DNA from: a virus
Taxonomy: Duplodnaviria > Heunggongvirae > Uroviricota > Caudoviricetes
Reading direction: 5' to 3' (one strand)
IMG/VR virus record: IMGVR_UViG_2778261541_000007
DNA length: 7,660 bases
A program made the position numbers and the translations under genes. The notes beneath the pieces are model-generated. The model was given only the letters and a program-made list of their open reading frames with translations. It had not been told where the DNA came from and searched no databases. This document shows, piece after piece, positions 631 to 4,753 of the stretch; the stretch's first letter is position 1; the number at the start of each line of letters is the position of its first letter.

Positions 631-647
631 TGAAACAGGTGAGTTGA

Positions 648-682
648 GTTCAAACTGTAGTACAATTCTCTCCAGTTTGAAC
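648..682. repeat. Perfect 10-bp inverted repeat (gttcaaactg ... cagtttgaac) with 15-nt loop, between ren and emrE
   Basis: Read directly: arms at 648-657 and 673-682. It ends one base before the emrE Shine-Dalgarno (aggaaag, 683-689). No T-tract follows, so it is not a canonical intrinsic terminator. Confidence 0.4.
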
Positions 683-697
683 AGGAAAGAATATTCT

Positions 698-1030
698 ATG
701 AACCCTTATATTTATCTTGGTGGTGCAATACTTGCAGAGGTCATTGGTACAACCTTAATGAAATTTTCAGAAGGTTTTACACGGTTATGGCCATCTGTTG
801 GTACAATTATTTGTTATTGTGCATCATTCTGGTTATTAGCTCAGACGCTGGCTTATATTCCTACAGGGATTGCTTATGCTATCTGGTCAGGAGTCGGTAT
901 TGTCCTGATTAGCTTACTGTCATGGGGACTTTTCGGCCAACGGCTGGACCTGCCAGCCATTATAGGCATGATGTTGATTTGTGCCGGTGTGTTGGTTATT
1001 AATTTATTGTCACGAAGCACACCACATTAA
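698..1030 (+). CDS. emrE: EmrE small multidrug resistance (SMR) efflux transporter, 110 aa
   Basis: MNPYIYLGGAILAEVIGTTLMKFSEGFTRLWPSVGT...LLSRSTPH is near-identical to E. coli EmrE as I recall it. I place the start at ATG 698 (SD aggaaag upstream) rather than the ORF track start at 644, because that gives the known 110-aa product. Confidence 0.9.
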   Translation: MNPYIYLGGAILAEVIGTTLMKFSEGFTRLWPSVGTIICYCASFWLLAQTLAYIPTGIAYAIWSGVGIVLISLLSWGLFGQRLDLPAIIGMMLICAGVLVINLLSRSTPH

Positions 1031-1061
1031 AAATAATTTGTTTCTAAACGACTAAAATATG

Positions 1062-1102
1062 GAGGCTCTTATATTTATATGAGCCTCGTTTTATGCTTTT
1101 TG
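1062..1102 (+). terminator. Putative intrinsic terminator downstream of emrE
   Basis: Stem gaggctc (1062-1068) / gagcctc (1081-1087) with a 12-nt AT loop, followed by a T-rich run gttttatgctttttg (1088-1102). The U-tract is interrupted, so strength is uncertain. Confidence 0.4.
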
Positions 1103-1287
1103 TTAATGTCTTTATTTTTTTTATGTATTCTTTTGTGCTTTCAAGATTATGGCGTAAGAAAATTGCAATACGATTATTGTTGTATATTCAAGATAATGTG
1201 ACCTTAATTGTCTTTTTAAATAAAAATTAAACAAAAATTATATCCCACCACTAAGGTTTATAAAAGCATACGTTAGCAGGTGTCACC

Positions 1288-2814
1288 ATGAAAAAAGCCA
1301 TAGCATATATGCGATTTTCATCACCAGGTCAGATGTCTGGCGACTCATTAAACCGACAGAGAAGACTTATTGCTGAATGGTTAAAGGTAAATAGTGATTA
1401 TTATCTTGATACCATAACATATGAAGATTTAGGATTAAGTGCATTCAAAGGAAAGCATGCACAATCAGGAGCTTTTTCGGAATTTTTAGATGCTATAGAG
1501 CATGGTTATATATTGCCAGGAACTACATTGTTAGTTGAAAGTCTGGACAGACTTTCAAGAGAAAAAGTCGGTGAAGCGATTGAACGTCTGAAATTGATTT
1601 TGAATCACGGTATTGATGTTATAACTCTTTGCGACAATACAGTCTATAATATTGACTCTTTGAATGAGCCATATTCATTAATAAAAGCCATACTTATAGC
1701 ACAAAGGGCAAATGAAGAAAGCGAGATAAAGTCAAGTCGGGTTAAATTATCATGGAAGAAAAAACGGCAGGATGCACTGGAATCAGGTACGATTATGACG
1801 GCGTCTTGTCCGAGATGGCTCTCCTTAGATGACAAAAGAACGGCTTTTGTTCCAGACCCCGACAGGGTGAAAACTATTGAGCTAATTTTTAAACTCAGGA
1901 TGGAAAGGCGCTCATTGAATGCAATAGCCAAGTATTTAAATGATCATGCTGTAAAGAATTTCTCAGGAAAAGAAAGTGCATGGGGACCTTCTGTAATTGA
2001 AAAATTATTAGCGAATAAAGCTCTGATAGGTATATGCGTACCTTCATATCGTGCAAGAGGGAAAGGGATAAGTGAAATCGCTGGCTATTATCCCAGAGTC
2101 ATATCAGATGATTTGTTTTACGCTGTACAGGAAATTCGGTTGGCACCTTTTGGTATTAGCAATAGTAGCAAGAATCCTATGCTAATAAATCTACTTCGAA
2201 CAGTTATGAAGTGTGAGGCTTGTGGTAATACCATGATTGTTCATGCGGTATCTGGAAGTTTGCATGGCTATTATGTTTGTCCGATGAGAAGATTACATCG
2301 ATGTGACAGGCCATCAATAAAAAGAGATTTGGTTGATTATAATATCATTAATGAATTGCTTTTTAATTGTAGCAAAATTCAACCAGTGGAAAACAAGAAA
2401 GATGCTAATGAAACTTTAGAGTTAAAAATTATTGAGCTTCAGATGAAAATTAATAATTTAATCGTTGCATTGTCTGTCGCGCCTGAAGTTACCGCTATAG
2501 CAGAGAAAATAAGACTATTAGATAAGGAATTACGAAGGGCTTCGGTATCATTGAAAACTTTGAAGAGTAAAGGTGTAAATTCATTCAGTGATTTTTATGC
2601 TATTGACTTAACCAGTAAAAATGGACGAGAGTTATGCCGTACACTTGCCTATAAAACATTCGAAAAAATCATAATTAATACGGATAATAAAACCTGTGAC
2701 ATCTATTTTATGAATGGCATTGTTTTTAAATACTATCCTTTAATGAAAGTAATATCCGCCCAGCAGGCGATAAGTGCTCTCAAATATATGGTTGATGGTG
2801 AGATTTATTTCTAA
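1288..2814 (+). CDS. ybcK: Large serine recombinase (resolvase/invertase-type catalytic domain, recombinase domain, zinc ribbon, coiled coil), 508 aa
   Basis: N-terminus AIAYMRFSSPGQ...SLNRQ...LLVESLDRLSREK fits the serine-recombinase catalytic motifs (catalytic Ser in RFSS, DRLxR box). Cys cluster CEACGNT...YYVCPMRRLHRCD fits a zinc ribbon. SD aggtg lies 7 nt upstream of the ATG. Length matches K-12 YbcK. Sits in a very AT-rich stretch. Confidence 0.9.
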   Translation: MKKAIAYMRFSSPGQMSGDSLNRQRRLIAEWLKVNSDYYLDTITYEDLGLSAFKGKHAQSGAFSEFLDAIEHGYILPGTTLLVESLDRLSREKVGEAIERLKLILNHGIDVITLCDNTVYNIDSLNEPYSLIKAILIAQRANEESEIKSSRVKLSWKKKRQDALESGTIMTASCPRWLSLDDKRTAFVPDPDRVKTIELIFKLRMERRSLNAIAKYLNDHAVKNFSGKESAWGPSVIEKLLANKALIGICVPSYRARGKGISEIAGYYPRVISDDLFYAVQEIRLAPFGISNSSKNPMLINLLRTVMKCEACGNTMIVHAVSGSLHGYYVCPMRRLHRCDRPSIKRDLVDYNIINELLFNCSKIQPVENKKDANETLELKIIELQMKINNLIVALSVAPEVTAIAEKIRLLDKELRRASVSLKTLKSKGVNSFSDFYAIDLTSKNGRELCRTLAYKTFEKIIINTDNKTCDIYFMNGIVFKYYPLMKVISAQQAISALKYMVDGEIYF

Positions 2815-3195: not shown

Positions 3196-3225
3196 TTGCA
3201 TGAACATTGCGCCTTTATGCATAAT
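3196..3225 (+). promoter_or_regulatory. Candidate sigma70 promoter for ybcL-ybcM (TTGCAT, 18-bp spacer, CATAAT)
   Basis: Hexamers read directly at 3196-3201 and 3220-3225, about 55 nt upstream of the ybcL start. AT-rich DNA gives many chance matches, so this is tentative. Confidence 0.25.
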
Positions 3226-3278
3226 GAGATAAAGGAATATCAAATAAAATAACGATAGGTCATAACAAAGAGGTTTTT

Positions 3279-3830
3279 ATGAAAACACTTATCGTTTCAA
3301 CTGTATTGGCATTCATAACATTTTCTGCGCAGGTTGCAGCATTTCAGGTCACTAGTAATGAAATAAAAACAGGAGAGCAACTTACAACGTCTCATGTCTT
3401 TTCTGGATTTGGGTGTGAAGGTGGTAATACATCGCCCTCATTAACCTGGTCTGGTGTTCCTGAAGGTACCAAAAGCTTTGCCGTAACTGTATATGATCCA
3501 GATGCACCTACAGGCAGTGGTTGGTGGCATTGGACTGTTGTTAATATTCCAGCAACAGTAACATATTTGCCCGTTGATGCAGGGAGACGTGATGGAACAA
3601 AACTGCCGACTGGTGCTGTTCAAGGCCGAAATGATTTTGGCTATGCTGGGTTTGGTGGCGCATGTCCTCCTAAAGGAGATAAACCACATCATTACCAGTT
3701 TAAAGTATGGGCTCTAAAAACTGAAAAGATTCCTGTAGATTCTAACTCCAGCGGAGCGTTAGTTGGTTATATGCTTAATGCTAATAAAATCGCAACCGCT
3801 GAGATAACACCAGTTTATGAGATAAAGTAG
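3279..3830 (+). CDS. ybcL: Secreted PEBP-family (YbhB/YbcL, UPF0098) protein with N-terminal signal peptide, 183 aa
   Basis: Signal-peptide-like N-terminus MKTLIVSTVLAFITFSAQVAA. PEBP-like core with the DPDAP motif (YDPDAPTGSGWWHW) and HHY. SD agagg before the ATG. Length and position match K-12 YbcL. Confidence 0.85.
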   Translation: MKTLIVSTVLAFITFSAQVAAFQVTSNEIKTGEQLTTSHVFSGFGCEGGNTSPSLTWSGVPEGTKSFAVTVYDPDAPTGSGWWHWTVVNIPATVTYLPVDAGRRDGTKLPTGAVQGRNDFGYAGFGGACPPKGDKPHHYQFKVWALKTEKIPVDSNSSGALVGYMLNANKIATAEITPVYEIK

Positions 3831-3839
3831 GGTGAGAGT

Positions 3840-4637
3840 ATGCTGGCAAGAGGTAAGACTAACTTAAAGATCGAAGAAATACGGATGCATAAACATCATG
3901 AGATTCATAGGGTTAAGCCTCTTATGCCAGCTTTGTGTCGTATCCGTCAGGGAAAGAAAGTTATCAATTGGGAGACGCATACTTTAACTGTTGATAATAA
4001 TCAAATAATATTATTTCCTTGTGGTTATGAATTTTATATTGAGAATTATCCTGAAGCAGGGCTTTATCTTGCAGAAATGCTTTACTTACCCATTGATTTA
4101 ATTGAGAGTTTCCAAAAACTTTATACGGTAACTGATCAAATACGTAACAAAACAAGTTTCTTTTTACCTCAGAATCCTGAGTTAATATATTGTTGGGAGC
4201 AACTAAAAACATCTGTTTCCCGAGGCTTCTCAACTAAAATTCAGGAGCACTTAGCAATGGGCGTTCTACTTTCGTTAGGAGTGAATCATGTTAATCATTT
4301 ACTTTTATCATATAGTAAACAATCATTGATAAGTCGTTGTTATAACCTGCTGCTATCCGAACCCGGCACAAAATGGACAGCAAACAAGGTTGCTCGATAT
4401 CTCTACATTTCTGTTTCTACATTACATCGCCGTCTAGCAAGCGAGGGGGTAAGTTTCCAAAGTATACTGGACGATGTGAGGTTAAATAATGCGTTGTCTG
4501 CTATACAAACGACGGTAAAACCTATAAGCGAGATTGCCAGAGAAAATGGTTATAAGTGTCCTTCTCGTTTTACTGAAAGATTTCATAATCGTTTTAATAT
4601 AACACCAAGAGAGATAAGAAAAGCTTCCAGAGAGTAA
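3840..4637 (+). CDS. ybcM: AraC/XylS-family transcriptional regulator, 265 aa
   Basis: C-terminal helix-turn-helix region typical of the AraC family ([36 protein letters not shown]...[32 protein letters not shown]). Starts 9 bp after the ybcL stop, so likely co-transcribed. Confidence 0.85.
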
Positions 4638-4701
4638 AAGTGTTTTAAGAAGGAGCAATTCTATCGATTTTGATTTTGGGAAATCAACACGGCATAATTA
4701 T

Positions 4702-4730
4702 GTCACCGGAGCCTGAACAACTCCGGTGAC
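4702..4730. repeat. Perfect 10-bp-stem hairpin (gtcaccggag / ctccggtgac, 9-nt loop) 65 nt downstream of ybcM
   Basis: Read directly. It is followed by ttctgcgc, a weak U-tract, so it may be a weak terminator or an RNA/protein recognition element. It sits at the right edge of the AT-rich block. Confidence 0.4.
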
Positions 4731-4753
4731 TTCTGCGCTAAACGGGGACGTTT

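Follow-up and report, generated by a model that had tools for sequence, protein, structure and literature searches.

The AT-rich emrE-ybcK-ybcL-ybcM region of DLP12/phage 82-type lambdoid prophages: a probable three-module accessory load between ren and the nin genes

What kind of DNA is the AT-rich stretch carrying emrE, ybcK, ybcL and ybcM that separates ren from the nin region in the 7,660-nucleotide (nt) viral record IMGVR_UViG_2778261541_000007 of IMG/VR, and how did it come to be there? In the following the whole stretch of 7,660 nt is called the window, and positions are counted from its first letter. The earlier note on this DNA took positions 631-4740 to be a single horizontally acquired cargo block, inserted between ren and the nin genes and bracketed by two perfect hairpins. 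The reading that we favor, with a probability of about 80%, is that the block makes up the accessory (“moron”) load carried in the P/ren-nin slot by phage-82/DLP12-type lambdoid phages and that it is a mosaic of three modules. The region as such is already known; it is the long-annotated accessory region of DLP12 and phage 82 and is annotated in every E. coli K-12 genome. The finding as first stated adds little: the structures of two of the proteins have been solved, and the right inverted repeat has been on record since 1996. What value is left lies in a conserved, covarying RNA in the leader of the nin operon and in the orphan recombinase YbcK.

By identity and gene order, the window belongs to a lambdoid E. 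coli prophage of the DLP12/phage-82 type. From 100 to 7611 it matches, at 99.4% identity, a prophage of strain GF43 (L001) that occupies the tRNA-Arg/argU site and adjoins intD, and in which the annotated order is P, ren, emrE, ylcJ, ybcK, ybcL, ybcM, a small open reading frame (ORF), ybcN, ninE, ybcO, rusA, ylcG, Q and a lipocalin gene. DLP12 of E. coli K-12 and phage 82 (X92588) share the order ren, emrE, ylcJ, ybcK, ybcL, ybcM, ylcH, ybcN, ninE, ybcO, rusA, ylcG and Q, and ybcK of K-12 strains matches the window gene at 99.7%.

It is clear from the computed base composition that the block differs from its surroundings, as had been estimated by eye. The G+C content is 36.4% in 631-4740 compared with 50.0% in 1-630 and 49.3% in 4741-6719, and the G+C content at third codon positions (GC3) is 0.26-0.34 in emrE, ybcK, ybcL and ybcM compared with 0.46-0.59 in ren, ybcN, ybcO, rusA and Q. 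The profile is thus not flat; it contains a clear step, by ~14 points for G+C and by ~25 for GC3. The identities proposed for the four genes (efflux pump, serine recombinase, PEBP protein and AraC regulator) were likewise upheld by Pfam and PDB searches, and the perfect hairpins with 10-bp stems do exist, at 648-682 and 4702-4730. Three such hairpins were observed in the window, where a first-order Markov model predicts 0.2. The third, which the earlier note had missed, is found at 1535-1558 (TTGAAAGTCT GGAC AGACTTTCAA) inside ybcK, where it overlies the codons of the invariant ESLDRLSRE catalytic motif of YbcK. The two edge hairpins share no sequence with each other.

The limits of the variable DNA were mapped by comparison of the window with eight E. 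coli loci. Among these, six prophages (L003-L008) have a different set of genes in the interval from ren or P to ybcN, namely emrE-ybcK alone (L003), emrE-ybcK with an alpha/beta hydrolase gene (L006) or with a P22AR remnant (L007) and, in the three prophages without ybcK (L004, L005 and L008), TagO and HEPN, an inverse autotransporter, or DUF4041 and P22AR. On the right side, homology to the window restarts at 4668/4669 in all six, and the element at 4668 is also present in L002, an island described below. Position 4668 marks the T-run and TTGATT of a promoter-like element situated 34 nt upstream from the right hairpin, and the right hairpin therefore belongs to the conserved backbone. On the left side, the match to prophages with other cargo stops at 319 (no ren), 573 or 594 (573-594 in L004 and L008), and L002, which has no ybcK, first matches the window at 621. 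Phage lambda provides the empty site for comparison: Ren of lambda shows 90% identity save for the last few residues, the break at the nucleotide level falls at window position ~603, and its 73-bp ren-ninB spacer has the tR2 hairpin with a U-run 25 nt after the ren stop codon, followed by the ninB Shine-Dalgarno sequence. The left limit at ~603-630 corresponds to the last ~10 codons of ren, and the variable DNA therefore extends from ~603/631 to 4667, with backbone flanks that are 93-99% identical to the window in sister prophages carrying unrelated cargo. Alignment to lambdoid prophages lacking the block thus locates its borders, and these are not at the hairpins; the right hairpin is within the backbone, the left one within the emrE module, and neither is an end of the block. 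What stands of the extent first given (631-4740) is the AT-rich variable DNA between ren and nin, and what falls is its exact limits. A repeat search over the block and module borders found no direct or inverted repeats linking ~600-700 with ~4650-4750, or 1039 with 3123, apart from short AT-rich chance pairs, and the block ends have neither the related terminal repeats nor the target-site duplication of a discrete mobile element.

Comparison of the copies shows the block to be a mosaic of three modules, emrE, ybcK and ybcL-ybcM, with separate histories as judged from their distribution and divergence. All genome counts were taken over 5,426 complete E. coli genomes. The emrE module (631-1038, plus strand), consisting of a leader with the left hairpin and emrE itself, is present in 3,693 genomes, in ~1,408 of them at 95% identity or above and in 2,284 at 90-95%. 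The ybcK gene is present in 1,424 genomes (1,398 at 80% or more of its length), a number that tracks the ~1,408 of prophage-type emrE, with a median of one ybcK copy per genome, and in 15 of 15 ybcK-carrying phage or prophage loci it follows emrE; emrE and ybcK are always found together in phage and prophage loci, while the sequel to ybcK varies. The ybcK module (1039-2884, plus strand) includes a terminator-like hairpin, ylcJ, a promoter, ybcK and ~70 nt of 3' flank, and its homology to L003, L006 and L007 ends between 2823 and 2884. It is followed by a non-coding spacer (2885-3123) that is found only in the ybcK-then-ybcLM arrangement and has no match in L002, L003, L006 or L007. The ybcL-ybcM module (3124-4667, plus strand) has its own promoter and matches L002 8424-10154 at 89.6%; ybcLM occurs in 3,258 genomes, 667 at 99% identity or above and 2,590 at 90-95%. 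The complete arrangement of the window is found in 667 genomes.

The commonest form of the block is emrE-ybcL-ybcM without ybcK, located between fliE and yedK in ~2,300-2,600 of the genomes. This fliE/yedK island (L002 8001-10230, L137 5001-7230) has ~90% identity to the window, matches 621-1038 (91%, with the emrE module as one unit) and 3124-4854, and is devoid of window positions 1039-3123. What it retains of a lambdoid phage is a 10-nt piece of ren, the complete nin leader and the ylcH start, followed by a remnant of the Q C-terminus (tblastn ~3e-5), and IS200/IS605 remnants lie beside it. Because ren, the nin leader, ylcH and Q have left these traces, the island is a fossil of an older lambdoid prophage whose slot once held emrE-ybcLM; the commonest E. 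coli copy of emrE thus sits in a fossil prophage beside flagellar genes. The prophage copies are ~99% identical to the window compared with ~91% for the island copies. The block is also present at 99.7% identity over 100% of its length in the isolated phages PhiR34_1, PhiR68_2 and PhiR70_1, and is therefore carried by viable phages. In place of the single inserted block first proposed there are at least three modules with differing genome distributions.

How variable is the slot itself? A scan of viral contigs for a conserved anchor 60 nt 3' of the right hairpin gave 120 loci (L017-L136). In the 109 loci with at least 1.5 kb of upstream DNA, the sequence immediately upstream fell into 63 clusters, and a recognizable ren was never found less than 1.5 kb from the right border in the sampled loci. 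The border-proximal ORFs encode alpha/beta hydrolase, HolE-theta, NADAR, HAD, Lar, ea8.5-like proteins and glycine-zipper lipoproteins, and some cargo proteins of the slot match the PADLOC models PD-Lambda-1 and BstA. In this sample of contigs the ren-nin junction is among the most variable lambdoid cargo slots, with a right border that is sharply fixed. Since it is highly variable, has a fixed right border and sometimes holds known defense genes, the slot should be practical for the mining of new accessory functions.

The moron concept is due to Hendrix and Juhala. By this concept the block qualifies through its patchy presence at the same map position (L003-L008 and lambda; 63 neighbors in 109 loci) and through its deviant composition (36.4% compared with 49-50% G+C). 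It also appears to carry signals of its own: a consensus promoter at 3156-3184, promoters upstream from ybcK and ybcL in a genomic SELEX (systematic evolution of ligands by exponential enrichment) study (PMC3946193), and a terminator-like hairpin at 1062-1087. Lambda morons such as bor and lom resemble the block in their deviant composition, their patchy presence in relatives and their dispensability for lytic growth, and they have promoters of their own, as the block appears to have; unlike them, the block has several modules arrayed in one slot, and one of the modules codes for a recombinase. The accessory and defense hotspots of P2 and P4 (PMC9122126) are similar in having a fixed position between conserved genes and many unrelated, alternating cargo sets, whereas the ren-nin slot belongs to lambdoid phages and to another position, and the four genes of the window (EmrE, YbcK, YbcL and YbcM), as well as YbcN, match no PADLOC defense model at E ≤ 0.01. 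On the left side of the slot we observed a short joint, TGACCATCTACATYACTGAGCTAATARCAGG, common to HK022 (L218 2350-2400, after the helicase gene) and lambda (L138 1069-1100, after ren), which leads into tR2 in lambda and into AT-rich DNA in HK022. This joint may have been conserved as a linker to the left of this hotspot.

The right border opens the leader of the nin operon. Read on the plus strand, it consists of the promoter-like element TTGATT-17-CATAAT (4668-4698) that starts the conserved backbone, the right hairpin as stem-loop 1 (4702-4730; GTCACCGGAG/CTCCGGTGAC, a 10-bp stem with the 9-nt loop YCUGAACAN, then UUCU), and stem-loop 2 (4734-4759), in which the loop holds the Shine-Dalgarno sequence GGGA of ylcH and the 3' arm holds its start codon. 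The gene ylcH (4754-4855, plus strand; orf33 of phage 82 in the X92588 annotation, a hypothetical protein in L001) overlaps the start of ybcN, and a literature search for ylcH gave irrelevant matches only. The TTGATT...AATCAA part of the promoter-like element is palindromic, and its hexamers are conserved in 129 loci. The phage 82 record X92588 from 1996 opens with 120 nt that match window 4621-4740 exactly, which places the 3' end of ybcM in phage 82; the annotation of the record has a putative -35 at 4670-4675 and a putative -10 at 4693-4698, and labels 4702-4730 a “possible regulator-binding site”. Phage phi80 has the inverted repeat IR4 at the homologous place. The genomic SELEX study, on the other hand, lists no constitutive promoter in the ybcM-ybcN spacer (PMC3946193).

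As RNA the right hairpin is predicted to fold strongly (-22.2 kcal/mol, z = -3.7), and the leader is kept as two stem-loops across the 129 loci. Stem-loop 1 is found with 21 different 5' arms around an almost invariant YCUGAACAN loop; pairing is seen in 84.7% of cells, where 1,000 partner shuffles gave 58.8% on average and never more than 64.3%, and it falls to 33-52% when the register is slid. These pair statistics were calculated in Python from loop-anchored ungapped 35-mers, because MAFFT put two stem-length classes out of register; T15, G16 and A17 are fixed by the anchoring, and the motif was found in every locus examined. In stem-loop 1 there are 64 G.U-type pairs on the plus strand compared with 15 of A.C type. 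Stem-loop 2 occurs in at least six stem versions, all of which still pair, with double changes UA/AU (23/17) and AU/CG/GC (21/17/3), and no version moves GGGA out of the loop or the start codon out of the 3' arm. The G.U strand bias together with the freely changing arms points to an RNA structure on the plus strand rather than a DNA palindrome read by a protein.

A search of the whole window against Rfam at E ≤ 1 gave nothing at either hairpin, and returned only a weak match on the terminator downstream from Q and a chance microRNA match. We found no second copy of the right hairpin elsewhere in prophage L001 or in phage PhiR34_1 (L011), the cro-cII spacer contains a boxA-like CGCTCTTTAAC and no similar hairpin, and the leader has no similarity to the early and nin regions of HK022. 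An antitermination RNA of the nut boxB or put type was rejected on the grounds of the single copy per prophage, the missing similarity to the HK022 early region and the missing Rfam match. The put RNAs of HK022 resemble the leader in gross layout only, with two adjacent stem-loops in ~60-70 nt directly 3' of a promoter-like element (PMC9378689); the leader differs from put in being present once, at the nin operon, and not after PL and PR, and in having regular stems without the bulges of put. In L008 a second copy of the 170-nt nin leader, 78% identical, is located within the cargo (4053-4222) upstream from a gene with a P22AR domain, which suggests that the leader may serve as a recombination joint.

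What could the leader be doing? The most likely role of the right hairpin, at roughly even odds, would be that of a terminator equivalent to tR2, shielding nin and Q from cargo transcription. Like lambda tR2 between ren and ninB, it is a GC-rich stem-loop that immediately precedes the Shine-Dalgarno sequence of the first nin gene, and its structure has the fold score, the covariation and the G.U bias described above. It is unlike lambda tR2 in having UUCU where tR2 has a canonical U-run, in its conserved loop, in the second hairpin that sequesters a start codon and in the lack of any sequence similarity. A possible, though doubtful, further step is to see the leader of phage-82/DLP12/HK639-type phages as an undescribed cis-regulatory RNA that combines a promoter-proximal stem-loop, with an almost invariant loop on a fast-covarying stem, and a stem-loop that hides the ylcH start codon; if true, this RNA would also be the fixed right border of a major cargo and defense hotspot. 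Instead of simply terminating transcription, the leader could be a switch that binds a factor or the polymerase and so controls access to nin and Q. The leader RNA is the only part of the locus that might be new.

The mechanism that we propose for the block as a whole is as follows. Co-infecting or resident lambdoid phages would assemble and swap modules in two ways, through homologous recombination between their conserved flanks and through illegitimate recombination at microhomologies, and neither transposition nor site-specific insertion would be required. The AT-rich genes would be transcribed from their own sigma-70 promoters and silenced by H-NS, as the literature suggests. The right hairpin and UUCU would stop unmodified polymerases coming from the cargo promoters before they reach nin and Q, and antiterminated transcription from pR would get through. 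Because nin and Q would be insulated in this way, the slot may be a safe harbor for foreign genes. Stem-loop 2 would gate the translation of ylcH and, by coupling, that of ybcN.

The recombinase YbcK (1288-2814, plus strand) deserves separate treatment, as it might be supposed to act on the slot. It is a large serine recombinase (PF00239 Resolvase 5.5e-19, PF07508 Recombinase 2.3e-14, PF13408 Zn_ribbon_recom 7.9e-08) with no sequence match in PDB at 1e-5. All of 12 compared sequences, 42-100% identical, have R9, S11, D87-R88-L-S-R91 and four zinc-ribbon cysteines unchanged; the homologs outside E. coli, from Atlantibacter, Yersinia, Pantoea, Erwinia, Ewingella and Citrobacter, are 42-61% identical. 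YbcK shares the three-domain architecture and the catalytic Ser/Arg with large serine recombinases such as the phiC31 and Bxb1 integrases and the TnpX and TndX transposases; unlike these it resides in a phage that already has a tyrosine integrase, IntD at argU, and no candidate att sites were found at the module borders in the window or at the ends of the Pantoea module. Genes of the YbcK clade are found as stand-alone modules of 1.8-2.5 kb in three settings: in Pantoea within a lambdoid prophage, where the gene occupies the corresponding slot, in Atlantibacter at a prophage end that directly adjoins the 3' end of ssrA, and in Yersinia between two prophages (L012 8001-10432; L014 7524-10016; L146/L156 ~6778-8583). 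Two Pantoea species share 94% identity limited to -223 to +58 around the gene, and no terminal repeats were seen at the ends of this common 1.8-kb module. Such a pattern could result from the usual mosaicism of phages at the scale of single genes as well as from self-mobility, and YbcK-clade recombinases may be self-mobile, recombinase-only modules. The sole functional report for ybcK is a sabinene-tolerance phenotype (PMC7181518). The expectation that the block is the part of the window most likely to hold an uncharacterized function is not supported for two of its four gene products, EmrE and YbcL, which are already characterized.

With these data at hand the other explanations for the block can be weighed. 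A single 4-kb cassette with the hairpins as its terminal signatures would account for the real composition step and for the presence of both hairpins within ~50 nt of the limits of the variable DNA. It is nevertheless very improbable. The right hairpin is part of the backbone and accompanies all other cargo that was examined, its sequence is unrelated to that of the left hairpin, the three modules differ in distribution and in divergence (~99% and ~91% identity for prophage and island copies), and no repeats join the two borders. The least credible alternative is that the four genes are ancestral to the phage lineage and were never acquired; stable inheritance of the block, its presence in viable phages and its wide spread in E. 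coli would agree with this, but not the steps of ~14 points in G+C and ~25 points in GC3, the absence from lambda, or the unrelated genes found in its place in sister prophages with 93-99% identical backbone flanks. Of the idea of acquired cargo, what holds is thus the deviant composition, the absence from lambda and the replacement in sister prophages, and what does not is the one insertion with hairpin ends. Could YbcK instead drive the variability, either as an integron-like integrase capturing cassettes 3' of its gene or with the ~2-kb ybcK module as a minimal mobile element? The intact and invariant catalytic and zinc-ribbon residues, the stand-alone modules in Pantoea, Atlantibacter (ssrA) and Yersinia and the sharply bounded identity between the two Pantoea species speak for it, as does the position of the variable DNA, which starts ~70 nt past the ybcK stop codon. 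We still find it quite unlikely. The slot is equally variable in phages without ybcK (L004, L005 and L008), the junctions differ among themselves, no terminal inverted repeats or shared half-sites exist at 1039/3123 or at the Pantoea module ends, and in E. coli ybcK follows prophage-type emrE in number (1,424 and ~1,408), in its median of one copy and in its position after emrE in all 15 loci. Most variants have a truncated antirepressor remnant 3' of ybcK, and one of the junctions is a deletion: L003 and L007 differ by 226 bp between CTATC microhomologies, and this difference is therefore ascribed to illegitimate and not to site-specific recombination. An integron-like capture site after ybcK was rejected on the basis of these differing junctions and this microhomology deletion.

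For the right inverted repeat there remains the suggestion of the phage 82 annotators, that it acts as DNA, as the operator through which a dimeric protein would regulate the promoter-like element at 4670-4698. The label “possible regulator-binding site” directly after the putative -35 and -10, and IR4 of phi80 at the homologous place, would fit such an operator, but we consider it unlikely, because the arms change freely (21 different 5' arms) while pairing stays, the loop is conserved and the arms are not, and the excess of G.U-type over A.C-type pairs (64 compared with 15) fits RNA pairing on the plus strand. The reading of the block as an accessory load of three modules, with the right hairpin as its insulator, has difficulties of its own. 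The predicted terminator has only UUCU 3' of the stem in place of a U-run and was not called by the terminator scan, a near-invariant loop on fast-changing stems is not expected of a plain terminator, and a conserved promoter-like element is positioned directly upstream from it. In addition, pR, N and cI are deleted in the window, so the insulation logic applies to intact relatives and not to this defective copy. Two directions of change also remain for the block, insertion of ybcK into emrE-ybcLM or its deletion from a four-gene block; the emrE-ybcLM junction is blurred by ~10% divergence and by AATAAT on both sides.

Turning to the individual modules, emrE (698-1030, plus strand) codes for a multidrug efflux transporter of the SMR family (Pfam Multi_Drug_Res 3e-35; full-length match to EmrE in PDB 3B5D, 9.5e-69). 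EmrE is a model multidrug transporter with many solved structures. The left hairpin (648-682, plus strand; GTTCAAACTG/CAGTTTGAAC, a 10-bp AT-rich stem with a 15-nt loop) is located 3' of the ren stop codon and 5' of the emrE Shine-Dalgarno sequence, ends 15 nt before the emrE ATG and moves with emrE. Its predicted RNA fold is weak (-14.2 kcal/mol, z = -1.7), it has neither a U-run after the stem nor promoter geometry, and the island allele, which is the commonest (L002 and L137), has an uncompensated A.A mismatch in the middle of the stem (CAGTATGAAC). We take the left hairpin as part of the emrE leader and see no evidence of a further function. The genomic SELEX study handles ren-emrE as one unit (PMC3946193).

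At the start of the ybcK module, a GC-rich hairpin with a U-rich run (1062-1087, plus strand; -14 kcal/mol, z = -3.2) is the likely terminator of emrE. The module further holds the small ORF ylcJ (1081-1230, plus strand; Pfam YlcJ 8e-26, annotated in L001) and a constitutive sigma-70 promoter upstream from ybcK in the emrE-ybcK spacer (GTGACC-17-TAAAAA, 1198-1226, plus strand), listed as associated with H-NS in the genomic SELEX table (PMC3946193).

The third module has a sigma-70 promoter of ybcLM (GTGGCA-17-TACAAT, 3156-3184, plus strand) that was found by consensus scan, and the same hexamers are listed by the SELEX study as a constitutive, H-NS-associated promoter in the ybcK-ybcL spacer (PMC3946193). 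The first gene, ybcL (3279-3830, plus strand), encodes a secreted protein of the PEBP family (Pfam PBP 3e-42; PDB 1FUX 1.6e-112). The structure of YbcL has been solved (1FUX), and a role in uropathogenic E. coli (UPEC) has been reported. The second, ybcM (3840-4637, plus strand), encodes an AraC-family regulator of Rns/ToxT-like size (Pfam HTH_18 9.5e-17, with a weak ExsA_N match; PDB Rns and GadX at ~1e-6 in the HTH part), whose HTH part resembles Rns, GadX and ToxT.

The backbone genes around the block show that the source prophage has suffered a deletion. The first 92 nt of the window are an internal fragment of bet (1-92, minus strand; 100% identical to L001 6268-6359), which at ~93-99 is fused to the last 232 nt of the replication gene P (100-331, plus strand). 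Window position 100 corresponds to L001 12001 within P, and this 3' part is collinear with the annotated replication protein P in L001 and L003-L008. The joint from bet to P thus represents a deletion of ~5.6 kb across the immunity and replication region, in which gam through N, cI, cro, cII, O and most of P have been lost. Because of this deletion the source prophage is defective, without pR and cI, and expression in the window would be independent of phage repression, as cI, pR and N have gone with the deleted stretch. Downstream from P lies ren (328-630, plus strand), whose product is 90% identical in amino acids to lambda Ren with only the C-terminal tail diverging, and on the other side of the block ybcN (orf151; 4852-5307, plus strand; L001 annotation, weak Pfam NinB match) is the first substantial gene of the nin region.

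The deletion from bet to P is peculiar to the window copy when compared with DLP12 and phage 82, as are the lipocalin gene that takes the place of a porin gene 3' of Q and an insertion sequence (IS) end at 7604. Positions 6720-7603, 3' of Q, form a second AT-rich cargo slot, in which a terminator-like hairpin with a T-run (6818-6841) precedes a gene for a Blc-like lipocalin lipoprotein (6875-7399, minus strand); K-12-type relatives have a porin gene of the nmpC/ompD type in this slot. The last 57 nt of the window (7604-7660) are 100% identical to very many chromosomal and plasmid places, as is typical of the end of an insertion sequence, which we take to be the IS1 inverted repeat (GGTGATGCTGCCAACTTACTGATTTAGTG). 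This end breaks the sequence where relatives run on into a DUF523/DUF1722 (ybgA-like) gene.

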